A stretch of 23,530 bases of DNA, taken from the UHGV virus genome UHGV-0262101, one strand, 5' to 3'. Origin of the DNA: a virus. A program made the position numbers and the translations under genes. The notes under the pieces were generated by a model. That model was not told the origin of the DNA. It saw only the letters and a program-made list of their open reading frames with translations, and made no database searches. Position 1 is the stretch's first letter; each line of letters begins with the position of its first letter. Positions 3,396 to 20,144 of the stretch are shown here, piece by piece.

Positions 3396-4574
3396 ATGGC
3401 TATAAGCGACACAAAACTGCGTACTATTTATGGTAAACCATATTCGGGCCCACAAGAAGTGGCTGATGCCGATGGCCTCAGCGTACGAATTTCACCGAAG
3501 GGGGTCATCCAGTTCCAGTACCGCTATCGCTGGCATGGCAAGCCTAATCGACTTGGGCTTGGTCGATACCCATCCCTGTCTTTGAAGGATGCCAGACAGA
3601 TCACTGCTGACTTGCGAAAGCTCTATTTCTCAGGAACGGATCCACGCACCTATTTTGAAGAGAAGGTGGAGAACTCCATGACGGTCGCCCAGTGTCTCGA
3701 CTACTGGTTCGACAACTACGTCTCTACAACTCTCAGAGAAAAGACCCAGGCACTTTACCGATCAACGGTTATGAAGCGCATGCATGACGCCTTTCCTAAT
3801 CGTCCGGCATCTTCTATCACGGTTAAGCAATGGGTTGACCTGCTTACCGAAGAAGAAAGAGATAATCCACGCCGAGCAAGGCAGGTGCTAAGTCAACTAA
3901 GATCAGCAATAAGTTGGTGCATGCGGCGTCAGTTGATAGATAGTTGCGCAATTATGAGCATCCAACCAAGGGACTTCGGCTCCCGCGCTGAGGTAGGGGA
4001 TCGGGTACTGTCGTATCACGAACTGGCTAAGATTTGGCTTGCTATTGAAAGAAGCCGTGCGTCTACGTCAAATAAGCTACTTCATCAGATGCTTATGCTG
4101 TGGGGGGCGAGGCTCTCAGAGCTTAGGCTGGCAACAAAGACAGAATTTGACCTGCTGGACAACGTATGGACCGTACCGAAAGAGCATAGCAAGATGGGTA
4201 ATGTTATCCGTCGTCCAATCTTCGAACAAATTAAGCCTTTTCTCGAAAAGGCCATGACAACGTACAATGATGTTCTTTTCCCTGGAGAAGACATAAACAA
4301 ACCGATCAGCATCGCTGCAGCCAACCGATTCGTAAATAGAATAAGGGGAGGGATGGATCTAGGTTACTGGCGAACACATGATTTCAGAAGAACGCTTGTT
4401 ACACGTCTGTCCGAGATGAATGTCGAGCCTCATGTTACTGAGCGAATGCTCGGTCATGAACTTGGCGGGATAATGTCCGTGTACAATAAACACGACTGGA
4501 TAGAGGCTCAGCGCAAAGCTTATGAGCTTCACGCTGATAAATTGTTCTGGCACATCAGGAGCATTTCTGGTTAA
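3396..4574 (+). CDS. int: Tyrosine site-specific integrase, P4 / CP4-57 type
   Basis: 392-aa ORF. N-terminal arm-binding-like region (GLSVRISPKGVIQFQYRYRWHGKPNRLGLGRYPSLSLKDAR) and C-terminal catalytic region with HDFRRT, LGH and the SVYNKHDW tyrosine region. Confidence 0.9.
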   Translation: MAISDTKLRTIYGKPYSGPQEVADADGLSVRISPKGVIQFQYRYRWHGKPNRLGLGRYPSLSLKDARQITADLRKLYFSGTDPRTYFEEKVENSMTVAQCLDYWFDNYVSTTLREKTQALYRSTVMKRMHDAFPNRPASSITVKQWVDLLTEEERDNPRRARQVLSQLRSAISWCMRRQLIDSCAIMSIQPRDFGSRAEVGDRVLSYHELAKIWLAIERSRASTSNKLLHQMLMLWGARLSELRLATKTEFDLLDNVWTVPKEHSKMGNVIRRPIFEQIKPFLEKAMTTYNDVLFPGEDINKPISIAAANRFVNRIRGGMDLGYWRTHDFRRTLVTRLSEMNVEPHVTERMLGHELGGIMSVYNKHDWIEAQRKAYELHADKLFWHIRSISG

Positions 4575-4746
4575 CGCCACCGTTAAGAATCCACCCTTCA
4601 ACAGCTTCACGAAGGTATGATTTTGGGTGGGTTCTGACTGGCTTCGGAAATCCGTGCCGTTTGGTATAGTTCCAGATTGTCTGACGTGATGAAACACCGA
4701 GCTTGTTCATCACTTCTTTCTCAGGAATCAGGCTGGTATCGGTCAT
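4555..4746 (-). CDS. xis: AlpA-family DNA-binding protein (putative excisionase / recombination directionality factor)
   Basis: 63 aa, MTDTSLIPEKEVMNKLGVSSRQTIWNYTKRHGFPKPV...EAVEGWI fits the AlpA/Xis pattern. Convergent with int, 3' ends overlap by 20 bp. Confidence 0.75.
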   Translation of the reverse strand: MTDTSLIPEKEVMNKLGVSSRQTIWNYTKRHGFPKPVRTHPKSYLREAVEGWILNGGVNQKCS

Positions 4747-4761
4747 CTTAATTCTCCAGGC

Positions 4762-4785
4762 AAAAAGAAACCGCCATATAGCGGC
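4762..4785 (-). terminator. Possible intrinsic terminator upstream of the xis-like gene (minus-strand sense)
   Basis: Minus-strand reading gccgctatatggcgg followed by tttcttttt. Short GC stem with one G-U pair. Confidence 0.3.
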
Positions 4786-4846
4786 TCTATCAGATATGTA
4801 CAGGCCTCATCGAGTGTGAGGCGGTGTGATTTCTTTATTTCCACTC

Positions 4847-5062
4847 TTAATGTTTGTCAGTGAATGGTTTCTCCATCTCCATTAATGCCTTATTCATCTC
4901 CTTTCGTAACTCTATAGCCATCCTGACGGCTTCAACCTGAGCAGGATGTCGGTTAATTGCTGGAGAATATCGTCGGGAGCGAAGGATTGAGAAAACAAAG
5001 ATAATGCAAGCAACTATCTGAATTGCATTGCATGTTATTGATACAATGTGAATTGCAGCCAT
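4847..5062 (-). CDS. Hypothetical small protein with hydrophobic N-terminus
   Basis: Track ORF of 71 aa (MAAIHIVSITCNAIQIVACIIFVFSIL...). G-rich candidate RBS upstream. No homology recognised. Confidence 0.35.
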   Translation of the reverse strand: MAAIHIVSITCNAIQIVACIIFVFSILRSRRYSPAINRHPAQVEAVRMAIELRKEMNKALMEMEKPFTDKH

Positions 5063-5085
5063 CTACTACCCCCAAAAAACCTCCA

Positions 5086-5253
5086 TCAGGCGGCTGGGTG
5101 TTCTTTCAGTTCTTCAATTCGAATATTGGTTACGTCTGCATGTGCTATCTGCGCCCATAGCATCCAGTGGTCATAGCAGTCGTTGATGTTCTCTGCTTCG
5201 ATAACTCTGTTGAATGGTTCTCCATTCCATTCACCTGTGACTCGGAAGTGCAT
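5086..5253 (-). CDS. Hypothetical small protein (55 aa), not in the ORF track
   Basis: Manual minus-strand translation from ATG at 5251-5253 gives MHFRVTGEWNGEPFNRVIEAENINDCYDHWMLWAQIAHADVTNIRIEELKEHPAA. GGAG lies 7 nt upstream. Confidence 0.45.
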   Translation of the reverse strand: MHFRVTGEWNGEPFNRVIEAENINDCYDHWMLWAQIAHADVTNIRIEELKEHPAA

Positions 5254-5325
5254 TTATCATCTCCATAAAACAAAACTCGCCGTAGCGAGTTCAGATAAAA
5301 GAAATCCCCGCGAGTGCGAGGATTG

Positions 5326-5610
5326 TTATTCATTGCCGATATTCACCTTTATCGCGTACACCTTTACCGGTTTATCGCCGAAGTGAGGATGTGTGATTGT
5401 CTTGATTTCATATCCGTCATACGGGACGTCAATTCTGCGGCTGGAATCGTCGCGCTTCGGATATCCCTTTGTGATAATCAGGCGGTCATACTCCCGGAAC
5501 ATAATTCGCTTATTCCAGTAGTCATTACACAGGCGATACTCTTCCGTTTTCTCTCCGCGAATCATGGCATCGAAGTATTCACCTTTGACGGCAAGTTGCA
5601 GGTTAGCCAC
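5326..5610 (-). CDS. Hypothetical protein (94 aa)
   Basis: Track ORF. GTG start preceded by AGGAGG at 6-nt spacing. Overlaps the stop of the upstream gene by 8 nt. Confidence 0.6.
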   Translation of the reverse strand: MANLQLAVKGEYFDAMIRGEKTEEYRLCNDYWNKRIMFREYDRLIITKGYPKRDDSSRRIDVPYDGYEIKTITHPHFGDKPVKVYAIKVNIGNE

Positions 5611-6405: not shown

Positions 6406-6594
6406 TCACTCTCCTTTAGTGCGCAAATGGTTTTTCCAGCGGTTTTGCGCCGCGCTGGGCTTTTTGCAAAAACCACAATCCATCATCCCGTAATATTTCA
6501 TCAACCCCATCCGTCGGTTGCTGAGTCTCACCCACTGCCAGACGCCAGGAGCGTTTCTACGAACTAACAGAATCTTTGCTTTACGGTTTTTCAT
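6406..6594 (-). CDS. Hypothetical small protein (62 aa)
   Basis: Track ORF. ATG overlaps the stop of the 58-aa ORF upstream (ATGA) and its own stop abuts the next ATG. Confidence 0.5.
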   Translation of the reverse strand: MKNRKAKILLVRRNAPGVWQWVRLSNRRMGLMKYYGMMDCGFCKKPSAAQNRWKNHLRTKGE

Positions 6595-6767
6595 CGCTTT
6601 GCTCTCCTGCGTCTCTTTGCTGCTCGTCGTGCCGCTGCAATACCGGTATGGCGGCGCTTTGGTGCCGGGATGATGTTGTCAGCCATCAGGACATGTGGCT
6701 TTGCAATTAGCGCAGAAGCCCAAAAACGAGTCGGGTACGGTAACAAGTCGATACATGCCACACGCAT
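6591..6767 (-). CDS. Hypothetical small basic protein (58 aa), not in the ORF track
   Basis: Manual translation MRVACIDLLPYPTRFWASALIAKPHVLMADNIIPAPKRRHTGIAAARRAAKRRRRAKR. AAAGGAGG upstream, TAATG overlap with the upstream gene and ATGA overlap with the downstream gene. Confidence 0.45.
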   Translation of the reverse strand: MRVACIDLLPYPTRFWASALIAKPHVLMADNIIPAPKRRHTGIAAARRAAKRRRRAKR

Positions 6768-7255
6768 TACTCACCTCCTTTGATGCGAATGCCTGTTGCA
6801 ATGCTGTTTATGATGCTGTCAGTGCATGGGGTAGAAAGCTGGGCATCTCCAGCAATTTTCATGACCTCAACATCTGCATATCGAATACCGAGGTGTATCA
6901 GACCGGCTATGCCTGACTTAAGCCGAGCATTTTCCATAAATAGAACTTTTGCCCGCTGTTTTTCTGCTTCAAGCTCAACACGCAGCTTCCCTACCGTTAG
7001 CGCAATTTCCTCGTTTTCCTGGTCGCGGCGTTTGATGTATTGCTGGTTTCTTTCCCGTTCATCCAGCAGTGCCAGCACGGTTTCTGGTCCGGTCAGAAAT
7101 TTGAAGGCGTTGAGCGCATCAATATCCACACCGTAATCTTTAAGTTCCTGTTCACTTAACAAGTCATCATCAGCTGGCAACATTAACAGGCGTTCCATTG
7201 CTGGAATTGCACGTTCCGCCACCTCACGCAGTGCCTGGTAATTAATTTCGCTCAC
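6767..7255 (-). CDS. Hypothetical protein (162 aa), Ea22/Ead-like coiled-coil-rich
   Basis: Track ORF. GTG start overlapping the upstream stop (GTGA), AAGGAGG 6 nt upstream. Confidence 0.6.
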   Translation of the reverse strand: MSEINYQALREVAERAIPAMERLLMLPADDDLLSEQELKDYGVDIDALNAFKFLTGPETVLALLDERERNQQYIKRRDQENEEIALTVGKLRVELEAEKQRAKVLFMENARLKSGIAGLIHLGIRYADVEVMKIAGDAQLSTPCTDSIINSIATGIRIKGGE

Positions 7256-9555: not shown

Positions 9556-9860
9556 GCTGCTTCTCCAAAAATGTGTCTGCGCTTGAATATTGCGAAGGCA
9601 TATTCAGCCTTAACTCTTTCGGTTATTGCATCCCAGAACCATTCAGCGGCTTTTTCCTGATAGTTACAGTCATCATCTTCCAGCCAGTCGATAGCGTCCT
9701 TAGTGTGTTCATCTGGTTTATATGAGCGAAGCATTTCGCTTATTGGGTCGCAACGTTTGCAGAGGCGATCAACTTCACTGTTGATTCGTTCGTAATCATC
9801 ATCGGTAAAACTTGCGATGATTTGCGATATTTCACGCTTATCATTCAGAGTCAGAATCAT
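9552..9860 (-). CDS. Hypothetical acidic protein (about 102 aa)
   Basis: Track ORF 9552..9863, with AGGAGA upstream. Stop overlaps the recT ATG (ATGA). No homology recognised. Confidence 0.6.
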   Translation of the reverse strand: MILTLNDKREISQIIASFTDDDYERINSEVDRLCKRCDPISEMLRSYKPDEHTKDAIDWLEDDDCNYQEKAAEWFWDAITERVKAEYAFAIFKRRHIFGEAA

Positions 9861-9948
9861 CATCTTTCTCCTGTTCTTTGTGCTGATTGAGCATTTTGTT
9901 CATCTGACGAATGAATTCTTCGTCTGACCAGTTATCTGTAAAACTCAT
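9841..9948 (-). CDS. Possible very small acidic protein (35 aa)
   Basis: Manual translation MSFTDNWSDEEFIRQMNKMLNQHKEQEKDDDSDSE. ATG overlaps the stop of the cIII-like ORF (ATGA). Too short to judge. Confidence 0.3.
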   Translation of the reverse strand: MSFTDNWSDEEFIRQMNKMLNQHKEQEKDDDSDSE

Positions 9949-10115
9949 GGACGGACTTGTTGTTTCAAAATATCCCAAAGCTTTTCGAGCAAACTTTTCA
10001 TTCTTGGTTGTTTAAAGTCTGCTCCGGTTAAAATATTTTTTCGTGAATGCTGTACCGATAAAATCGGGTTGAAAGGGCGAACCGATGCCGCCCCTGCAAT
10101 AGCGAACTGTTGCAT
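9945..10115 (-). CDS. Possible CIII-like small regulator (56 aa)
   Basis: Internal ATG of track ORF 9945..10220 with AAGGAG 6 nt upstream. MQQFAIAG... and the KSLLEKLWDILKQ helix loosely resemble lambda CIII (MQYAIAG...RLIDILNQ). Position between N and the recombination genes matches cIII. Confidence 0.4.
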   Translation of the reverse strand: MQQFAIAGAASVRPFNPILSVQHSRKNILTGADFKQPRMKSLLEKLWDILKQQVRP

Positions 10116-10309
10116 AGGATGCTCCTTCTGTTTGATTGCATAACGAAAACGCCTCGAGTGAAGCGTTATTGGTATGCATATAAAAAGGCCCTCACACTGG
10201 AGGGCAAAGAAGATTTCCAATAATCAGAACAAGTCGGCTCCTGTTTAGTTACGAGCGACATTGCTCCGTGTATTCACTCGTTGGAATGAATACACAGTGC
10301 TTACTCGTA

Positions 10310-10780
10310 CTAATAAAATACCCAATTTTCTGTTTCTTGGTTGTGCCCAAAGTTATATTCAATATCTGGTGTTGATGTATCAATATTCTTCATCCCATCA
10401 ACAAGAGTTGATACAACAGCCAAATCTTGTTTGATTCTCATTAAATGGTATTTCTTCCGGCGCAATAAACTCTCAATGGCAAGTTTCTTCGTTGGGAATG
10501 CAAAAGATCTTTCTGCATTTTTTGCTACTTTCTTAATTGCATATCTATTTCTCCTTTGTTTCCATTCCTGTAACCACTGATTTGGTGCTGGTTTAAAATT
10601 AACAATCCAATGCGCAGGAACCAACCATGCATAATGCTCTGTCTGATGAAAAGCTATATATTGAAGTGCGAATATTTTTATCCCATCTTCTTCAACTGTC
10701 GCTTGGAATCTCCAGAAAACAGGCATTCCATCATGTTCAGTTTCTGATTCAGGAAAAGGTACGCTCCATGATTTTGTCAT
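10310..10780 (-). CDS. Hypothetical protein (156 aa), second gene of the N-proximal moron
   Basis: Track ORF, ATG with GAGGTGA 4 nt upstream. AT-rich, no recognisable domain, no TM segment. Confidence 0.7.
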   Translation of the reverse strand: MTKSWSVPFPESETEHDGMPVFWRFQATVEEDGIKIFALQYIAFHQTEHYAWLVPAHWIVNFKPAPNQWLQEWKQRRNRYAIKKVAKNAERSFAFPTKKLAIESLLRRKKYHLMRIKQDLAVVSTLVDGMKNIDTSTPDIEYNFGHNQETENWVFY

Positions 10781-10828
10781 ATCTCACCTCAAATAATTCA
10801 GTGCAGTGTTTATTCTGTTGTTAGTGCC

Positions 10829-10853
10829 AAAAATAAAGGCCGACTATGCGGCC
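10829..10853 (-). terminator. Intrinsic terminator between the two moron genes (minus-strand sense)
   Basis: Minus-strand ggccgcatagtcggcc (5-bp GC stem) followed by tttattttt. The hairpin overlaps the stop codon of the 207-aa gene. Confidence 0.5.
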
Positions 10854-11467
10854 TCGGAAGGAAGTCCAATCATCTTATTCAAATCTTCTACCCGTAAAGC
10901 AGGAAGTGCTGTACTTGCTTTATCTGCTTCTTTTGGTAGCAATTCTTTGCTTTCAGGCCAAACTTCAATAAGTCGCTTAACTGTTGTGACTGAGTTCAAA
11001 GCACCCCATACATTTGATTCGATATCCTTTTTCAAGGCTTCAAGGTTTTGTTGCAATGCGCAGATTTCATCAAACCTTTTTGTTATTTCGTGTTCTGCGT
11101 CAAACATGCACTTATCTTTGGTTGGAGTAGGGAGAAATATATCTTCGCCATTGCCGTCTTTCCCATATGAATGCCATCCAACCCTTCTGCCAGATACAGT
11201 CAGATAAATTGAAGTAGAACGAAAATCGTATGAGTAAAATGAACATCCCATCTTTTCAAGTTCTTCACTTATAGCTACCAACTTGGATGATAACTGATCC
11301 ACTTCCTCAGTTTTCTTTTTACCGCCAAACGCAATAACTCTGGCGTCAAGTGCAAGCTGGTTCTTTAACTTTGTTACTTCTTCAAGTTCAGTGAAAACCC
11401 CAGACTTAATTAAAGCGTTACGAGCGATTTCCTCTTTCATTCTCGTAGTTAAGCGGATTGATGACAT
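10844..11467 (-). CDS. Hypothetical protein (207 aa), first gene of the N-proximal moron, translationally coupled to N
   Basis: Track ORF 10844..11527 trimmed to ATG 11465-11467 (MSSIRLTTRMKEE...). Its RBS GAGAGGA overlaps the N stop codon. AT-rich, no recognisable domain. Confidence 0.7.
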   Translation of the reverse strand: MSSIRLTTRMKEEIARNALIKSGVFTELEEVTKLKNQLALDARVIAFGGKKKTEEVDQLSSKLVAISEELEKMGCSFYSYDFRSTSIYLTVSGRRVGWHSYGKDGNGEDIFLPTPTKDKCMFDAEHEITKRFDEICALQQNLEALKKDIESNVWGALNSVTTVKRLIEVWPESKELLPKEADKASTALPALRVEDLNKMIGLPSEAA

Positions 11468-11478
11468 ATTAATTCCTC

Positions 11479-11805
11479 TCAAATAAGTGGTTTGCTGCCT
11501 AATTTCATTTTCTGGCGACCAACACAAGTCACACCCATTTCACTGCGTGGCTTGCTGTACCATGTGCGCTGATTCTTGCGCTCAATACGTTGCAGGTTGC
11601 TTTCAATCTGTTCGTGGTATTCAGCCAGCACCGTAAGGTCTATCGGATTCAGTGCGCTTTCTACTCGTGATTTCGGTTTGCGATTCAGCGAGAGAATAGG
11701 GCGGTTAACTGGTTTTGCGCTTACCCCAACCAACAGGGGATTTGCTGCTTTCCATTGAGCCTGTTTCTCTGCGCGACGTTCGCGGCGGCGTGTTTGTGCA
11801 TCCAT
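11479..11805 (-). CDS. N: Antitermination protein N (lambda type)
   Basis: Internal ATG of track ORF (AGGAGA upstream). MDAQTRRRERRAEKQAQWKAANPLLVGVSAKPVNRPILSLNRKPKSRVESALNPIDLTVLAEYH... is near-identical to lambda N as recalled, including the arginine-rich boxB-binding motif. Confidence 0.9.
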   Translation of the reverse strand: MDAQTRRRERRAEKQAQWKAANPLLVGVSAKPVNRPILSLNRKPKSRVESALNPIDLTVLAEYHEQIESNLQRIERKNQRTWYSKPRSEMGVTCVGRQKMKLGSKPLI

Positions 11806-11977
11806 CTGGATTCTCCTGTCAGTTAGCTTTGGTGGTGTGGTAGGTGGGAGACCCATTTCGACCTGCTTCGGCCGACTTCAATTCGGCAATAGTTCCGCAG
11901 GCCTCGCCGCTTTACGTGCGACATATTCCCATCCATGAACCCTTCACCACACCCCAAAGCCTTCTGCTTTGAATGCT

Positions 11978-12008
11978 GCCCTTCTTCAGGGCTTAATTTT
12001 TAAGAGCG
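11978..12008 (-). promoter_or_regulatory. nutL (boxA CGCTCTTA plus boxB hairpin GCCCTGAAGAAGGGC)
   Basis: Reverse complement of 11978-12008 reads cgctcttaaaaattaagccctgaagaagggc, matching lambda nutL as recalled. Confidence 0.85.
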
Positions 12009-12052
12009 TCACCTTCATGGTGGTCAGTGCGTCCTGCTGATGGCTTAAAATA

Positions 12053-12132
12053 TACCTACAGGTAAAACCCATGTCTATACCTGTAGGTAAATAAAATTGA
12101 TGTGAGAGTTTACCTGCTTGAATTTTCAGGTA
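12053..12132. promoter_or_regulatory. oL operator cluster with the pL promoter region
   Basis: Palindromic 12-mers tacctacaggta (12053-12064) and tacctgtaggta (12078-12089), plus split half-sites tacct (12111-12115) and aggta (12128-12132). Same motif as at oR. Confidence 0.6.
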
Positions 12133-12150
12133 ATTAATTTTTTGGATTGA

Positions 12151-12174
12151 TATAAAAAAGCCCGCTTTGCGGGC
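12151..12174 (-). terminator. Intrinsic terminator ending the cI-distal transcript
   Basis: Perfect hairpin gcccgc-ttt-gcgggc (12160-12174). The minus-strand reading is followed by ttttttata. Confidence 0.65.
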
Positions 12175-12186
12175 TGAAAGGAGATG

Positions 12187-12483
12187 TCAGAAGCTATTTG
12201 GATTGCTTGGCCATTGCGGCAATTTTGATTCTACTGGGGTGTGTTTGGGTTTGAGTCCGTTTAAGTAGTCAAGGCGCTCAATGGCGCATTTATACATAGC
12301 AATCTGCTCTGATGACATGTCGTCGTATGACATGCCTTTGAACTTTTTAATTATCGATTCTGCCTCATGTATAAGATTCTTCTTCCTCATGAGTTCAGCT
12401 GTATGCTTAGAGCTTACAGGAGATAACTTTGCCCATATGAAGCAGATGATTACAACAGCGACTACTATGCCGGGTATAAACAT
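12187..12483 (-). CDS. Small single-pass membrane protein co-transcribed with cI (rexAB position)
   Basis: Track ORF 12187..12501 starts with TTG overlapping the cI stop (TTGA); the first ATG is at 12481-12483. MFIPGIVVAVVIICFIWAKL is a predicted TM helix followed by a charged soluble tail. No homology recognised. Confidence 0.6.
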   Translation of the reverse strand: MFIPGIVVAVVIICFIWAKLSPVSSKHTAELMRKKNLIHEAESIIKKFKGMSYDDMSSEQIAMYKCAIERLDYLNGLKPKHTPVESKLPQWPSNPNSF

Positions 12484-12497
12484 TTGCTGCTTTATCC

Positions 12498-13184
12498 TCA
12501 AACTTTTGGCAGATCGTCCTGGTCTACGTACCTGGTGTGTTTCACAATAGCTGAAACAAAATGCATTTTATCAACTTCTTCAACAGGAAGAGTGATTGGG
12601 CGGTGATCACTGTTTATGCTACTAAACTGATAATCACCGTCTCTTGTTTTGTTCATGATCTTTATCATGTTGTGACCGTCTTTGGTCCTTACAAAGACTT
12701 CATCACCTGGATGTACTGGCGTATTTGGTTCAATAACAACATATTCTCCTGACTGAATCCTTGGCCACATGCTGTCACCCTTAACCTTCAGACCGTAAGC
12801 ATCTTTATCGCCGCTGTAGATGCTTAACCAACCGGATCTGAATTCAATCATATCCACTGAGCCATCAACTCCCAAAACGGCTTCACCAATTACCGGAACA
12901 AAACCCGCACGAACGTTACCCGCAAACTCAAGATGGTCCGTAGCTCCAGCTTTACCATCTGCAAGCATGTCCATCCATCCGCGTGGGAGATTAAAAGATT
13001 TTTCAATTAGTTCCATCATATCGTCAGCAATGCGTTTTTTTCCGCTTTTTCCTTCCGGATACAGCATTCTGGAAACGTATGATGGTTCCCTTTCTATTCG
13101 ACGAGCCAACTCTGAGGCCTTTCCATTACAGAATCGGTCTCTTATCTCTATCAGCCTTAGTCGTCTTTGTTCGTATTTATCCAT
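12498..13184 (-). CDS. cI: CI-type prophage repressor (HTH N-domain plus LexA-like S24 autopeptidase C-domain)
   Basis: 228 aa. C-terminal GDSMWPRIQSGEYVVIE...MIKIMNK carries the Ser/Lys autocleavage motifs. Divergent from cro across the operator region. Not lambda cI. Confidence 0.85.
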   Translation of the reverse strand: MDKYEQRRLRLIEIRDRFCNGKASELARRIEREPSYVSRMLYPEGKSGKKRIADDMMELIEKSFNLPRGWMDMLADGKAGATDHLEFAGNVRAGFVPVIGEAVLGVDGSVDMIEFRSGWLSIYSGDKDAYGLKVKGDSMWPRIQSGEYVVIEPNTPVHPGDEVFVRTKDGHNMIKIMNKTRDGDYQFSSINSDHRPITLPVEEVDKMHFVSAIVKHTRYVDQDDLPKV

Positions 13185-16359: not shown

Positions 16360-16728
16360 ATGAGCAGAAAAACCCAACGTTACTCTAAAGAGTTCAAAGC
16401 CGAAGCTGTCAGAACGGTTCTTGAAAATCAACTTTCGATCAGTGAAGGCGCTTCCCGATTATCTCTTCCTGAAGGCACTTTAGGACAATGGGTTACCGCC
16501 GCCAGAAAAGGGCTCGGTACTCCTGGTTCCCGCACGGTGGCTGAACTGGAATCTGAAATTCTGCAACTGCGTAAGGCGTTAAATGAAGCTCGCCTTGAGC
16601 GAGATATATTAAAAAAAGCAACTGTAGATTCAATTGGTCAACGCAACAGTTATGTGAAAACATGGGGTTGCGGAGGTTTTTTGAATGAGACGAACATTTA
16701 CAGCAGAGGAAAAAGCCTCTGTTTTTGA
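16360..16728 (+). pseudogene. IS600-like OrfA with C-terminus replaced by read-through into IS30
   Basis: The OrfA frame is native up to about codon 87 (...RDILKKAT) and the A7G frameshift motif is at 16611-16618. After the IS30 junction at 16623 the ORF reads IS30 end sequence. Confidence 0.7.
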
Positions 16729-17843
16729 ACTATGGAAGAACGGAACAGGCTTCAGTGAAATAGCGAATATCCTGGGTTCAAAACCCGGAACGATCTTCAC
16801 TATGTTAAGGGATACTGGCGGCATAAAACCCCATGAGCGTAAGCGGGCTGTAGCTCACCTGACACTGTCTGAGCGCGAGGAGATACGAGCTGGTTTGTCA
16901 GCCAAAATGAGCATTCGTGCGATAGCTACTGCGCTGAATCGCAGTCCTTCGACGATCTCACGTGAAGTTCAGCGTAATCGGGGCAGACGCTATTACAAAG
17001 CTGTTGATGCTAATAACCGAGCCAACAGAATGGCGAAAAGGCCAAAACCGTGCTTACTGGATCAAAATTTGCCATTGCGAAAGCTTGTTCTGGAAAAGCT
17101 GGAGATGAAATGGTCTCCAGAGCAAATATCAGGATGGTTAAGGCGAACAAAACCACGTCAAAAAACGCTGCGAATATCACCTGAGACAATTTATAAAACG
17201 CTGTACTTTCGTAGCCGTGAAGCGCTACACCACCTGAATATACAGCATCTGCGACGGTCGCATAGCCTTCGCCATGGCAGGCGTCATACCCGCAAAGGCG
17301 AAAGAGGTACGATTAACATAGTGAACGGAACACCAATTCACGAACGTTCCCGAAATATCGATAACAGACGCTCTCTGGGGCATTGGGAGGGCGATTTAGT
17401 CTCAGGTACAAAAAACTCTCATATAGCCACACTTGTAGACCGAAAATCACGTTATACGATCATCCTTAGACTCAGGGGCAAAGATTCTGTCTCAGTAAAT
17501 CAGGCTCTTACCGACAAATTCCTGAGTTTACCGTCAGAACTCAGAAAATCACTGACATGGGACAGAGGAATGGAACTGGCCAGACATCTAGAATTTACTG
17601 TCAGCACCGGCGTTAAAGTTTACTTCTGCGATCCTCAGAGTCCTTGGCAGCGGGGAACAAATGAGAACACAAATGGGCTAATTCGGCAGTACTTTCCTAA
17701 AAAGACATGTCTTGCCCAATATACTCAACATGAACTAGATCTGGTTGCTGCTCAGCTAAACAACAGACCGAGAAAGACACTGAAGTTCAAAACACCGAAA
17801 GAGATAATTGAAAGGGGTGTTGCATTGACAGATTGAATCTACA
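16623..17843 (+). mobile_element. IS30, complete
   Basis: 1221 bp from tgtagattcaattggtcaacgcaac to gttgcattgacagattgaatctaca (26-bp imperfect IRs), flanked by 2-bp direct repeat AC (16621-16622 and 17844-17845). Confidence 0.9.
16685..17836 (+). CDS. insI: IS30 transposase
   Basis: 383-aa ORF with N-terminal HTH and DDE-type catalytic region; size and sequence match IS30 transposase as recalled. Confidence 0.9.
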   Translation: MRRTFTAEEKASVFELWKNGTGFSEIANILGSKPGTIFTMLRDTGGIKPHERKRAVAHLTLSEREEIRAGLSAKMSIRAIATALNRSPSTISREVQRNRGRRYYKAVDANNRANRMAKRPKPCLLDQNLPLRKLVLEKLEMKWSPEQISGWLRRTKPRQKTLRISPETIYKTLYFRSREALHHLNIQHLRRSHSLRHGRRHTRKGERGTINIVNGTPIHERSRNIDNRRSLGHWEGDLVSGTKNSHIATLVDRKSRYTIILRLRGKDSVSVNQALTDKFLSLPSELRKSLTWDRGMELARHLEFTVSTGVKVYFCDPQSPWQRGTNENTNGLIRQYFPKKTCLAQYTQHELDLVAAQLNNRPRKTLKFKTPKEIIERGVALTD

Positions 17844-17920
17844 ACAGCGTATTTTGCACAGGAGTCGCTGAAAAATACGCGTTAATCGAACAATGGCGAC
17901 AACAATTTCCCATTGAAGCG

Positions 17921-18739
17921 ATGTGTCAGGTATTTGGTGTATCCAGGAGCGGTTATTACAACTGGGTACAGCATGAACCCTCAGACAGAAAACAAAGTGA
18001 TGAGCGGCTAAAACTGGAGATTAAGGTGGCACATATCCGCACTCGCGAAACATATGGAACCCGGCGGCTCCAGACGGAGCTGGCAGAGAATGGCATCATC
18101 GTTGGTCGTGACCGACTGGCACGTCTTCGTAAGGAGCTAAGGCTACGCTGTAAGCAGAAACGCAAGTTCAGAGCGACTACGAACTCGAACCACAATCTGC
18201 CAGTTGCGCCAAATCTGCTGAACCAGACGTTCGCTCCTACAGCACCAAATCAGGTCTGGGTGGCGGACCTGACGTATGTTGCCACACAGGAGGGATGGTT
18301 GTACCTCGCTGGCATCAAAGATGTTTATACGTGCGAAATTGTCGGCTACGCCATGGGAGAGCGCATGACAAAAGAGCTGACAGGTAAAGCCCTGTTTATG
18401 GCGCTCAGGAGCCAGCGCCCACCTGCCGGGCTAATCCACCACTCTGATCGAGGTTCACAGTACTGCGCATACGATTACCGGGTCATACAGGAGCAGTTTG
18501 GTCTGAAAACATCAATGTCGCGTAAAGGTAACTGTTACGACAACGCTCCGATGGAAAGCTTCTGGGGAACGCTGAAAAATGAGAGCCTGAGCCACTATCG
18601 TTTTAATAACCGGGATGAAGCCATCTCAGTAATACGGGAATACATTGAGATTTTCTACAATCGTCAGCGTCGTCACTCTCGTCTGGGGAATATCTCCCCG
18701 GCAGCCTTCAGGGAAAAATATCATCAGATGGCTGCTTAA
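17921..18739 (+). CDS. IS600-like OrfB (IS3-family integrase-core domain), uncoupled from OrfA
   Basis: 272-aa ORF with rve-type DDE core (WVADLTYV...HSDRGSQY...NAPMESFWGTLK). It is separated from the frameshift site by the 1.2-kb IS30, so the OrfAB fusion cannot be made. Confidence 0.8.
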   Translation: MCQVFGVSRSGYYNWVQHEPSDRKQSDERLKLEIKVAHIRTRETYGTRRLQTELAENGIIVGRDRLARLRKELRLRCKQKRKFRATTNSNHNLPVAPNLLNQTFAPTAPNQVWVADLTYVATQEGWLYLAGIKDVYTCEIVGYAMGERMTKELTGKALFMALRSQRPPAGLIHHSDRGSQYCAYDYRVIQEQFGLKTSMSRKGNCYDNAPMESFWGTLKNESLSHYRFNNRDEAISVIREYIEIFYNRQRRHSRLGNISPAAFREKYHQMAA

Positions 18740-18861: not shown

Positions 18862-19302
18862 ATGAAAAAACTAACCTTTGAAATTCGATCTCCATCACAT
18901 CAGCAAAACGCTATTCACGCAGTACAGCAAATCCTTCCAGACCCAACCAAACCAATCGTAGTAATCATTCAGGAGCGCAACCGCAGCTTAGACCAGAATC
19001 GAAAGCTTTGGGCTTGCCTTGGTGACGTCTCGCGTCAGGTTGAATGGCATGGTCGCTGGCTGGATGCAGAAAGCTGGAAGTGTGTGTTTACCGCAGCATT
19101 AAAGCAGCAGGATGTTGTTCCTAACCTTGCCGGGAATGGCTTTGTGGTAATAGGCCAGTCAACCAGCAGGATGCGTGTAAGCGAATTTGCGGAGCTATTA
19201 GAGCTTATACAGGCATTCGGTACAGAGCGTGGCGTTAAGTGGTCGGACGAAGCGCGACTGGCTCTCGAATGGAAAGCGCGATGGGGAGACAGGGCTGCAT
19301 GA
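18862..19302 (+). CDS. ninB: NinB (Orf) recombination protein
   Basis: 146 aa from ATG 18862 (MKKLTFEIRSP...); essentially matches lambda NinB as recalled. The track ORF starts 6 codons earlier. Confidence 0.85.
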   Translation: MKKLTFEIRSPSHQQNAIHAVQQILPDPTKPIVVIIQERNRSLDQNRKLWACLGDVSRQVEWHGRWLDAESWKCVFTAALKQQDVVPNLAGNGFVVIGQSTSRMRVSEFAELLELIQAFGTERGVKWSDEARLALEWKARWGDRAA

Positions 19303-20144
19303 TAAATGTCGTTAGTTTCTCCGGTGGCAGGACGTCAGCATATTTGCTCTGGCTAATGGAGCAAAAGCGACAGGCAGGTGAAGACGTGCATTACGTTTTC
19401 ATGGATACAGGGGCAGAGCACCCTAAAACATATGAGTTCATCCGAAATATCGTCAGTAACTGGAAAATAGACTTACATTGCCTTCGTGTAATACCTAATC
19501 AAGAAATGGGGAAGGCCAGTAGTTATGAAGAGATAGGTGTCAATGATATTGGTCCAGATCTTATACCGTGGAAAAGGATGTTGAATAAATACGGACATCC
19601 ATATATCGGCGGTGCGTTCTGTACCGACAGAATGAAGTCTGTTCCATTCACCAAATATTGTCAGGAAAAGTTTGGGAAAGGAAATTACATCACATGGCTT
19701 GGCATTCGCACAGATGAACCAAACAGGCTTAAAAGGGCTAATGGTTTTCGGTACCTGGCTGATATAAGCGATTTTGAAAAACAGGATGTGCTTGATTGGT
19801 GGAGTGGGCAGAAGTTTGATCTTGGCATACAGGAGCATCTTGGTAATTGTGTTTTCTGCATAAAAAAAAGTATGCAAAAGGTGGCGCTGGCAGCCATGGA
19901 TGAGCCAGAACTTGCAGATGCATTTATCAACATCCTTGATACAGAAATAAAAACAGGAAAGGAACCGGTTATGTATCGAGGGAATAATACACTTAAATCA
20001 CTGATTGCCTTGTTTAGTGATATATCAAGAGATGAGTTAGCCTCAAGAATGACATCAATGCGACAGTATGATTCAGGTTCGTGTTCTGAATCATGTGAAG
20101 CATTTTCATGTCAGCTTGGATTTAATTTTGAGGATGCGGCATGA
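19269..20144 (+). CDS. ninC: NinC-like protein (PAPS-reductase fold)
   Basis: [16 protein letters not shown] is a PP-loop-like motif; size matches lambda NinC. The start could be ATG 19269 or ATG 19299, the latter overlapping the ninB stop as ATGA. Confidence 0.7.

Follow-up and report, generated by a model that had tools for sequence, protein, structure and literature searches.

Throughout, the window is the whole 23,530-nt stretch of virus genome UHGV-0262101 that was analysed, and the block is its segment at positions 10310-11478. The block lies between the antitermination gene N and cIII, in the slot that corresponds to the sieB-ral-ea10 interval of lambda, and it carries two open reading frames, called here ORF A and ORF B. 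Both frames, with their lengths and start codons, and the placement where lambda carries ral and sieB had been proposed in a first-pass annotation of this DNA, and we found them as described. From right to left, the features of the region are:

12049-12077, minus strand: putative pL-like promoter, TAGACA-17-TATATT, matching the sigma-70 consensus at 10 of 12 positions
12001-12008, minus strand: lambda-type nutL boxA, CGCTCTTA, exact pattern match
11978-11992, minus strand: lambda-type nutL boxB, GCCCTGAAGAAGGGC, exact pattern match
11479-11808, minus strand: N, antitermination gene, stop TGA at 11481-11479; 91% identity to lambda N, phrog_271
11478-11486, minus strand: boundary repeat TTATTTGAG, copy 1, spanning the N stop codon (9-mer match)
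10844-11467, minus strand: ORF A, 207 aa, ATG at 11467, stop TAG at 10846-10844
10826-10855, minus strand: predicted intrinsic terminator, GAGGCCG-CATAGT-CGGCCTT followed by TTTATTTTT (terminator scan; fold of -13 kcal/mol)
10788-10796, minus strand: boundary repeat TTATTTGAG, copy 2, just upstream of the ribosome-binding site of ORF B (9-mer match)
10310-10780, minus strand: ORF B, 156 aa, ATG at 10780, stop at 10312-10310
10266-10297, minus strand: hairpin 3' of ORF B, 14-bp stem, no T-run (-24.1 kcal/mol, z = -5.7)
10148-10205, minus strand: two terminator-like hairpins (10205-10188 and 10167-10148), just upstream of cIII
9945-10115, minus strand: cIII, the conserved right-hand anchor of the slot (phrog_550 CIII, E 1e-21)

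The early operon to which the block belongs is of the lambda type. The gene upstream of ORF A matches phrog_271, the family of N-like antiterminators, and the boxB sequence is the one that we take to be that of lambda nutL. On the coding strand, the pL-like promoter upstream of nutL was the best match to a sigma-70 site in the region. From 12049 down to 9942 no further site of this kind was found on the same strand, in a crude scan that weak or unusual promoters could escape, and an Rfam scan of positions 9700-12300 returned no RNA family. At the other end, the two hairpins at 10205-10188 and 10167-10148 probably close the variable slot before cIII; 933W carries homologues of these elements at the same position, and a putative terminator is annotated there in HK97.

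The GC content of the block was 0.381, the lowest of all 1,169-nt windows in the stretch (bottom 0.2%); the window averages 0.454, and N and recT stand at 0.50 and 0.46, respectively. The sliding-window analysis thus bore out the AT-richness that had been noticed by eye, as expected of an AT-rich accessory insert. GC3 was 0.34 for ORF A and 0.28 for ORF B. Both are real genes under purifying selection, with pN/pS of 0.35 for ORF A and 0.07 for ORF B, and both keep their full length across genera of Enterobacterales.

The junction between N and ORF A reads ...CTT ATT TGA GAGGAATTAAT ATG, with 11 nt from stop to start. The GAGG of ORF A begins right after the N stop codon and partly overlaps it, which agrees with the earlier claim of an overlap between the ribosome-binding site and the stop. 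The terminator at the other end of ORF A was also recovered as described: its stem-loop occupies 10855-10836 and is followed by TTTATTTTT, and the stop codon of ORF A lies in the loop. It is predicted to be the first terminator of the leftward operon. This arrangement is well conserved. In all 80 related loci from IMG/VR, ORF A stands directly after an antiterminator gene and before the conserved terminator. The 30 commonest variants of this terminator, which account for 53 of the 80 loci, show at most one base difference. The upstream antiterminator genes are of at least four types, each with a fixed spacing to ORF A. In prophages of Klebsiella, Providencia and Serratia the S24 repressor is followed, as the next called gene, by the homologue of ORF A, so that the early-left position is common to them. 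Since ORF A lies between the antiterminator gene and a conserved terminator, it should be made together with N; judging from this anatomy, it would be transcribed with N from pL, prior to N-dependent read-through. The proposal that the first gene is placed for the very start of pL transcription is thereby strengthened. The placement of the two genes suggests that both are needed within minutes of infection; they would be made with N or just after it, before all other delayed-early genes. ORF B sits behind the terminator of ORF A, and it is therefore probably delayed-early in this phage. The same terminator element is found in phage Dewey, there 3' of ORF B.

The first-pass annotation recognised no domain in either protein; both turned out to have well-defined families. 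ORF A matched the Nmad5 profile PF18757 with an E-value of 2.4e-70 and 237 bits (the Pfam gathering cut-off is 27), residues 4-203 aligning with all 206 profile positions (1-206), and it also matched phrog_1965. RefSeq already names it 'Nmad5 family putative nucleotide modification protein'. Judged by these profile matches, ORF A is a stand-alone, full-length member of the Nmad5 family. Its homologues include HK542 gp33, mEp235 gp37 and HK244 orf01, with identities of 95-97% to the mEp235 and HK542 proteins. Compared with the Nmad5 protein of N4-like phages, the identity was 29% over the full length, and the C-terminal motif was near-identical. The AF2 model of ORF A had a pLDDT of 85, and a Foldseek search of BFVD with this model retrieved phage Nmad5 proteins (E 7e-13 to 1e-7, TM 0.6-0.75). 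The likeness to the family (PF18757, PHROG 1965; for example Shigella phage B2 gp19) is end to end in the profile, and the predicted fold matches as well.

The best-conserved part of ORF A is a C-terminal module, TxKRLIExWPESxELxP...LPAxxVxxLNxxIGxP. Residues T162, L166, W170, P171, E172, P178, L196, N197, G201 and P203 are invariant in the lambdoid, Vibrio, N4-like and Dhillonvirus members. They are mostly hydrophobic, glycine or proline, and no catalytic-type motif was found among the conserved residues. The module is likely to be an interaction surface, as far as conservation can indicate.

The family was named for its genomic neighbourhood, and ORF A could accordingly belong to a pathway for DNA or nucleotide modification, by which phage DNA is chemically altered and escapes restriction. 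In the M6-like Pseudomonas phages, Nmad5 adjoins thymidine-hypermodification genes, its neighbours being aGPT-Pplase1 together with a nucleotide kinase and enzymes of the radical-SAM and PLP types (PMC9476957). In Shigella phage B2, which is N4-like, thymidylate synthase is followed by Nmad5, and the window itself has a PAPS-reductase-like gene (19239-20141). However, ORF A differs from the family in lacking its nucleotide-modification gene neighbourhood: it stands by itself, in a position for joint expression with N. No base-modification enzymes were found in the leftward operon of the window, nor beside the homologues in four other genera, and the neighbours were different in every prophage examined. 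HK542, a complete genome of 39 kb, carries Nmad5 without hydroxymethylase, kinase, aGPT-Pplase, PAPS reductase or ParB. The predicted fold of ORF A resembled no solved enzyme, and a PDB sequence search with ORF A gave noise alone. Among 151 matches in the Nmad5 profile search, the 120 listed were all single-domain proteins of 114-254 aa with no domain fusions. The nature of the conserved residues argues in the same direction. Our best guess, from sequence and model together, is that ORF A is unlike an enzyme or a part of a modification pathway and is non-catalytic; we regard a role in DNA modification as quite unlikely. The 'NMAD' domain among the validated or predicted defence systems of DefensePredictor is Nmad2, not Nmad5, and it is therefore irrelevant to ORF A.

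ORF B showed 100% amino acid identity to 933W L0079 and 99.4% to HK97 gp45, and it matched phrog_1636 over all positions (1-156 of 156) with an E-value of 2.7e-112. By this measure, it is the same protein as HK97 gp45 and 933W L0079. It is basic (pI 9.1) and has a conserved helical segment rich in lysine and arginine. No match was obtained in Pfam, NCBIfam or PDB, and PDB searches with ORF B and with a broad profile of its family gave noise alone. The structure model had a pLDDT of 54, unusable for fold assignment. A profile search among 1.84 billion representatives revealed a wider family with 88 matches of 130-165 aa; a Pfam scan of 44 members returned nothing consistent. By eye, the pattern of the family has a loose likeness to AP2-type DNA-binding domains (beta strands, then RFAFxTKxxA), which no tool supported and which we do not claim. 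No functional study of L0079 or HK97 gp45 was found in the literature. The two proteins belong to families that are already catalogued, and the block contains no new two-gene system.

A hairpin with a 9-bp stem had been reported after the second gene. The hairpin is real, but it is larger, with a 14-bp stem at 10297-10266, and none of 200 shuffled sequences folded as well. It is identical in 933W and HK97 and absent in Dewey and in the other genera. The two genes differ in how they end: ORF A has its own terminator, a hairpin with a T-run, and ORF B is followed by this T-less hairpin, with terminators about 90 nt beyond.

On this strand the 9-mer TTATTTGAG occurs only at 11478-11486 and 10788-10796, so that it forms a direct repeat on either side of the ORF A cassette. 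In 933W and Dewey, N is joined straight to ORF B by this same junction sequence, and the N-to-ORF B junction of both phages matches the 19-nt sequence TTATTTGAGGTGAGATATG at 10778-10796 without a difference. The record of the HK542 immunity region has 'boundary sequence 4' annotated at this position. ORF B shares the N-cIII slot and the operon with HK97 gp45 and 933W L0079. However, in HK97, 933W and Dewey it is alone in the N-proximal position, right after N and with no terminator between, whereas in this phage it is separated from N by the Nmad5 cassette with its terminator. The homologues of ORF B in prophages of Pectobacterium and Brenneria are placed at the distal end of the operon, beside xis-int. 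Taken from this anatomy, ORF A and ORF B appear to be interchangeable cassettes of the N-cIII slot, which would be swapped by recombination at short shared boundary sequences. Short conserved junctions beside cassettes are a likeness to the boundary sequences of lambdoid mosaics. The block consists of two accessory cassettes, independent of each other, which happen to be neighbours in the hypervariable N-cIII slot of a P22-like lambdoid prophage, and it represents ordinary lambdoid mosaicism, not a new system.

The two genes had been described as a two-gene moron, and they could form a functional two-component unit, of the toxin-antitoxin or effector-modulator kind, since they adjoin on the same strand and both have low GC. 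Their distribution, however, shows that they are mostly found apart. Among 5,426 complete E. coli genomes, ORF A was present in 209, ORF B in 593 and a contiguous N+A+B arrangement in about 42. ORF B was absent in about 80% of the genomes with ORF A, and ORF A in about 93% of those with ORF B. A rough chance expectation is 53 places (229 x 833 / 3585), and 43 records were observed, so that co-occurrence is at or below chance and the genes assort roughly independently. Similarly, of the 80 loci from IMG/VR that have ORF A, 9 also carry ORF B. HK542, HK244 and mEp235 carry ORF A without ORF B; Dewey, 933W and HK97 carry ORF B without ORF A. Here the conserved terminator separates the two. In one Vibrio phage, distant members of the two families are encoded in a single early operon, separated by about 1 kb; no IMG/VR relatives of these Vibrio proteins were found, and the case is a single anecdote that gives a weak hint of a link. 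The reading as a pair is already largely refuted by the distribution, and we consider it extremely improbable.

The term moron fits in part. ORF A and ORF B are like lambdoid morons in AT-rich foreign composition, in variable presence and, for the ORF A cassette, in the 3' terminator. They differ in that no promoter of their own was found, with no promoter-like site before either gene in the crude scan; they are therefore operon passengers, not autonomous transcription units, and the strict sense of the term does not apply.

The genes, singly or together, might also act as a prophage-expressed superinfection-exclusion or abortive-infection system like sieB, as the first-pass annotation had suggested. 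The slot is the same as that of lambda sieB, the composition looks foreign, presence or absence varies among otherwise similar prophages, and cloned Nmad5 appeared toxic. SieB, however, is a prophage-expressed exclusion protein with a transmembrane segment and a promoter of its own, whereas the two proteins here have neither a transmembrane segment nor a promoter detected by the crude scan. Maximum 19-residue Kyte-Doolittle hydropathy was 0.49 for ORF A and 0.56 for ORF B, in agreement with the earlier statement that neither protein spans the membrane. ORF A begins 11 nt past the N stop codon, ahead of the first terminator, and it is thus tied to pL. In lysogens pL is repressed, and since no separate promoter was found, prophage-expressed exclusion by ORF A or ORF B is unlikely. 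The PADLOC check of both proteins gave nothing above noise: with PADLOC-DB v2, ORF A had no match and ORF B matched Cas1_II with an E-value of 0.018 over 45 residues. Moreover, strictly virulent phages (N4-like, Dhillonvirus and M6-like) commonly carry Nmad5, and protection of a lysogen makes no sense there. All in all, we give a sieB-like function of these genes a very low probability. The likeness to lambda ral, sieB and ea10 lies in the slot, the leftward early operon and the accessory, non-essential character; Pfam, PHROG and NCBIfam scans revealed no relationship to these genes.

Another possibility is that the genes serve as early accessory factors in DNA replication of the phage, in recombination or in the choice between lysis and lysogeny, and take no part in conflict with the host. 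The slot lies between N and the cIII-kil and recombination genes. In N4-like phages Nmad5 is inside the replication and nucleotide-metabolism module, beside thymidylate synthase, and in a Providencia prophage it is in a module with DNA polymerase A, DUF2800 and a single-stranded DNA-binding protein. The location of Nmad5 in the N4-like replication modules and the M6-like hypermodification modules makes a role in DNA metabolism quite possible, and the basic ORF B could bind nucleic acid through its helical K/R-rich segment. On the other hand, most lambdoid phages lack one or both genes, which are thus dispensable at the level of the group, and a Dhillonvirus without nmad5 is viable. The behaviour of a hypervariable AT-rich cassette also fits conflict genes better than core functions. 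We therefore consider a role free of host conflict rather unlikely.

The reading that we prefer is that both are small non-catalytic binding proteins made as lytic growth starts. Their target would be a component of the host, and their purpose host takeover or counter-defence; lysogen protection and DNA modification would not be among their roles. Such a host-directed binding function is suggested by position, timing and one study in a distant genus, and we hold it tentatively, at somewhat less than an even chance. The explanation in full, comprising independent cassettes, early timing and a host-directed non-catalytic role, is the one that we slightly favour.

The study in question is the sole experimental link to defence. 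In a Dhillonvirus, point mutations in Nmad5, among them a K-to-E change, escape the Tmn defence; the gene appears toxic to clone, and its deletion does not abolish plaque formation and gives no escape from Tmn (PMC11846954). The Dhillonvirus protein has a different and longer N-terminal half than ORF A and, unlike ORF A, is encoded by a lone reverse-oriented gene among head genes. Its K216 aligns with R165 of ORF A, in the C-terminal module, if the numbering of phage SMA8 is assumed to equal that of the 254-aa Oekolampad homologue. An anti-defence role of the block is plausible. No match to characterised anti-defence families (Ral, Ocr, Gam and others) was obtained in Pfam, PHROG, NCBIfam or PDB searches, and lambdoid phages lay outside the coverage of the accessory-gene screen of Silas et al. 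In a bolder version, which we regard as doubtful, the interval from the antiterminator gene to the first terminator would be a dedicated immediate-early counter-defence slot, Nmad5 and gp45/L0079 would be new classes of immune-evasion or immune-sensed proteins, and the C-terminal module of Nmad5 would engage a conserved host factor with the same surface whose K-to-E change blinds the KAP-NTPase of Tmn.

ORF B is present in the textbook phage HK97 and in the Shiga-toxin phage 933W, and ORF A in HK542 and mEp235; hundreds of E. coli genomes carry the genes, including O157:H7 and ST131-type clinical strains. If a role in counter-defence or host takeover were true, it would explain part of the differences in host range of Stx and other lambdoid phages, and the Nmad5 family would gain a function, its database name being probably misleading for most members. 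A DefenseFinder anti-defence scan of EHEC phages recorded methyltransferase, Ral and Gam only (PMC12502783). Among the phages of that study, phi296, phi315, phi345, phi367 and phi419 carry ORF B. Both Ral and ORF B are present in phi296 and phi367, and the two are therefore not simple alternatives.

The window holds a P22-like lambdoid prophage. Its gene order begins with a tailspike carrying the P22 head-binding domain and then an integrase, followed by genes of the leftward early operon (DUF551, Ead/Ea22, Sipho_Gp157 and RecT), an S24-type repressor (gene 12498-13184), the rightward O and DnaB-type replication genes, two insertion sequences and, last, NinG and a NinI-type phosphatase. The two genes of interest, referred to here as ORF A and ORF B, lie between N and cIII in the leftward (pL) operon:

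12077-12049, (-) strand: pL-like promoter, consensus match only
12008-12001 and 11992-11978, (-) strand: boxA and boxB of nutL, lambda-type
11808-11479, (-) strand: N, 91% identity with lambda N
11467-10844, (-) strand: ORF A, 207 aa
10855-10826, (-) strand: intrinsic terminator, with the ORF A stop codon within its loop
10780-10310, (-) strand: ORF B, 156 aa
10297-10266, (-) strand: hairpin with a 14-bp stem, T-run absent
10205-10148, (-) strand: two terminator-like hairpins
10115-9945, (-) strand: cIII

All elements described in the first-pass annotation (the ORFs, the N junction, the terminator and the hairpin) were present in the window. The block had also been called AT-rich by eye, and this was borne out by computation: its GC content is 0.381 versus 0.454 for the window, the lowest among all 1,169-nt windows, and GC3 is 0.34 in ORF A and 0.28 in ORF B. 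The observation was confirmed, and its interpretation was partly supported. A second low-GC stretch (0.34) was noticed at 2201-2800, spanning the tailspike gene's 3' end and the gap up to the integrase. The hairpin directly 3' of ORF B (-24 kcal/mol, z = -5.7) is identical in 933W and HK97 and absent from Dewey and from the homologous loci of other genera. Candidate roles are as a boundary for recombination, a stability element or a site of RNA processing. The DnaB-type replication gene is separated from the nin region by two insertion-sequence transposase genes (16360-18739), one with HTH_38 and rve (16685-17836) and one IS3-like with HTH_21 and rve (17921-18739). They are followed by a PAPS-reductase-like gene (19239-20141) that aligns to profile positions 160-431 of 460 only and, judging from this alignment, may have lost its N-terminal part. 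With these two transposase genes and the partial gene, the prophage may be damaged.

No domain had been recognised in either protein, yet both turned out to be catalogued. ORF A aligns with the Pfam Nmad5 profile (PF18757) over its entire length (E 2.4e-70), also matches phrog_1965 and bears the RefSeq name "Nmad5 family putative nucleotide modification protein"; in mEp235 and HK542 the same gene is gp37 and gp33, respectively (95-97% identity). ORF B gave no match in Pfam, NCBIfam or PDB searches; it is a member of phrog_1636, with 100% identity to 933W L0079 and 99.4% to HK97 gp45, and is further carried by phi24B, BP-4795, Min27, Stx2 phage 86 and the BASEL phages Huey, Dewey and CurroJimenez. 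An exhaustive profile search revealed a wider family around it, composed of uncharacterised proteins of 130-165 aa. Since both ORFs are kept full-length across Enterobacterales genera, with pN/pS among close alleles of 0.35 (ORF A) and 0.07 (ORF B), they are real genes. Internal stop codons were seen in 2 of 63 unique ORF A alleles (IMG/VR). In many Stx2a-converting phage records (e.g. LC616047.1, 11131-11652), which have two matching places each for ORF A, the match covers residues 34-207 only, at 92.5% identity, and this lineage may carry a 5'-truncated or interrupted gene.

We compared the neighbourhood of ORF A in 80 loci (IMG/VR). At least four types of antiterminator were seen upstream: one of lambda-N-like proteins that end in ...KLGSKPLI (11-nt gap), one ending in ...KQLTAR (61 nt), Nun (136 nt) and a fourth type (36 nt). 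The hairpin and T-run at the ORF A stop codon were conserved among the loci, and the element downstream was variable: next came either the cIII-proximal terminators or one of three genes, namely ORF B, a 122-aa gene and a 98-aa gene. Nmad5 is likewise the first called gene leftward of the repressor in prophages of Klebsiella, Providencia and Serratia that have unrelated replication modules. The stretch between the antiterminator gene and the first terminator would thus be a cassette slot, and any gene in it would be transcribed together with N, at a stage when antitermination is not yet required. In the window, ORF A occupies this position, and ORF B is probably delayed-early, because it is located behind the terminator of ORF A. 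That the timing of both genes is set by position relative to N and the terminator is well supported.

The boundaries of these cassettes could be recognised. The N-to-ORF B junction in 933W and Dewey reads ...AAACCACTTATTTGAGGTGAGATATG, with no terminator found between the two genes, and HK97 has the same order (N, gp45, terminator, cIII). The 19 nt before ORF B in the window are the same as at this junction. The 9-mer TTATTTGAG has two occurrences on the coding strand, one at the N stop codon and one immediately before ORF B, and therefore forms a direct repeat flanking the ORF A cassette. The terminator found after ORF A in the window is located after ORF B in Dewey. The 58-nt spacer of 933W between its own N and L0079 (3469-3526) is homologous to the 3' coding end of a lambda-type N (...GVTCVGRQKMKLGSKPLI); it is a non-coding remnant and forms the left boundary of the cassette. 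Lambdoid mosaicism typically has short boundary sequences of this kind, and in the immunity-region record of HK542 one is annotated at the corresponding position. Both genes are already known at the sequence level, and their arrangement is ordinary lambdoid mosaicism.

The first-pass annotation treated the genes as a two-gene unit. An obligate pair is largely refuted by their separate distribution: ORF A is found alone after N or Nun in HK542, HK244 and mEp235, and ORF B alone after N in HK97, 933W and Dewey. Among 5,426 complete E. coli genomes, ORF A was present in 209, ORF B in 593 and the contiguous N-A-B order in 42. Taking the ~3,585 places that match some part of the region as the count of comparable slots, a rough denominator, independent assortment predicts ~53 joint occurrences versus 43 records observed, i.e. 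no enrichment. ORF B was present in 9 of the 80 IMG/VR loci carrying ORF A. It is well supported that the two are neighbours, independent cassettes rather than a pair. A single hint of a link comes from the Vibrio phage vB_Vp_PvVp04_M (OM837731.1), the only case outside E. coli in which both families were seen together: a distant ORF B relative (149 aa, 5001-5450) and an Nmad5 gene (6448-7080, 36% identity to ORF A) share an early operon, at a distance of ~1 kb from each other (HTH, ORF-B-like, pRha, YopX, Nmad5).

The name of the Nmad5 family derives from gene neighbourhood; in M6-like Pseudomonas phages it adjoins thymidine-hypermodification genes (PMC9476957). In an N4-like phage, Nmad5 comes after thymidylate synthase, inside the replication module. 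The Dhillonvirus Oekolampad has it as a lone reverse-oriented gene among head genes (4533-5297), flanked by spanin and minor-capsid genes and by scaffold and major-capsid genes, which suggests transcription separate from the late structural operon. For the lambdoid copy, the evidence speaks against modification as its role. A true modification function is one of the rivals that remain, but the partner genes are missing: the complete HK542 genome carries the homologue, and no modification enzyme was found in it. The fold is not enzyme-like either. The profile search gave 151 matches, and all 120 listed were single-domain proteins. From the N-terminus, the model of ORF A (pLDDT 85) runs through three long helices, a small sheet and another long helix to a conserved C-terminal module; it resembles other phage Nmad5 models, and no resemblance to solved structures was found. 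Most residues that are invariant among lambdoid, Vibrio, N4-like and Dhillonvirus members are Gly, Pro or hydrophobic; the invariant positions cluster in TxKRLIExWPESxELxP...LPAxxVxxLNxxIGxP, so that an interaction surface seems more likely here than an active site. Four of four Klebsiella and Serratia prophages with a divergent Nmad5 also encode an HTH_ParB protein of ~261 aa, and one of them DndB; neither was found in the complete HK542 genome, and the co-occurrence may be due only to the frequency of ParB-like genes in prophages.

Experimental work on the family is confined to Dhillonvirus, where one K-to-E substitution in Nmad5 lets the phage escape the Tmn defence, deletion of nmad5 does not, and the gene was apparently toxic to clone (PMC11846954). 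Assuming Oekolampad numbering, the escape lysine (K216 of the 254-aa homologue) aligns with R165 of ORF A, within the invariant motif.

With somewhat less than even confidence, we would guess that ORF A and ORF B each encode a small protein without catalytic activity that is made as lytic growth begins and would target a host component, serving host takeover or counter-defence. The strongest rival is that the proteins serve DNA metabolism or regulation of the phage itself, for which the position of Nmad5 in virulent phages speaks. The exclusion or abortive infection proposed in the first-pass annotation, if expressed from the prophage, is unlikely: no promoter was found for either gene on the coding strand, transcription of ORF A is coupled to pL, a promoter repressed in lysogens, PADLOC gave no match, and the Nmad5 family is abundant in strictly virulent phages. 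The absence of a TM segment, also noted at first pass, holds (no hydrophobic segment in either protein) and likewise speaks against exclusion. As for anti-defence, the DefenseFinder module applied to EHEC phages reported only methyltransferase, Ral and Gam (PMC12502783). Five of the scanned phages (phi296, phi315, phi345, phi367 and phi419) carry ORF B, two of them together with Ral, and this result is negative published evidence for ORF B. The role of these widespread N-proximal early genes can be tested with existing model phages.

A 104-aa ORF (12187-12501, (-) strand) overlaps the stop of the repressor gene, at the position occupied by rexAB in lambda. Its N-terminus is hydrophobic by eye (FIPGIVVAVVIICFIWA), and it matches phrog_10450, an uncharacterised family. 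Because it is co-transcribed with the repressor, this ORF is a better candidate for prophage-expressed exclusion than ORF A or ORF B.
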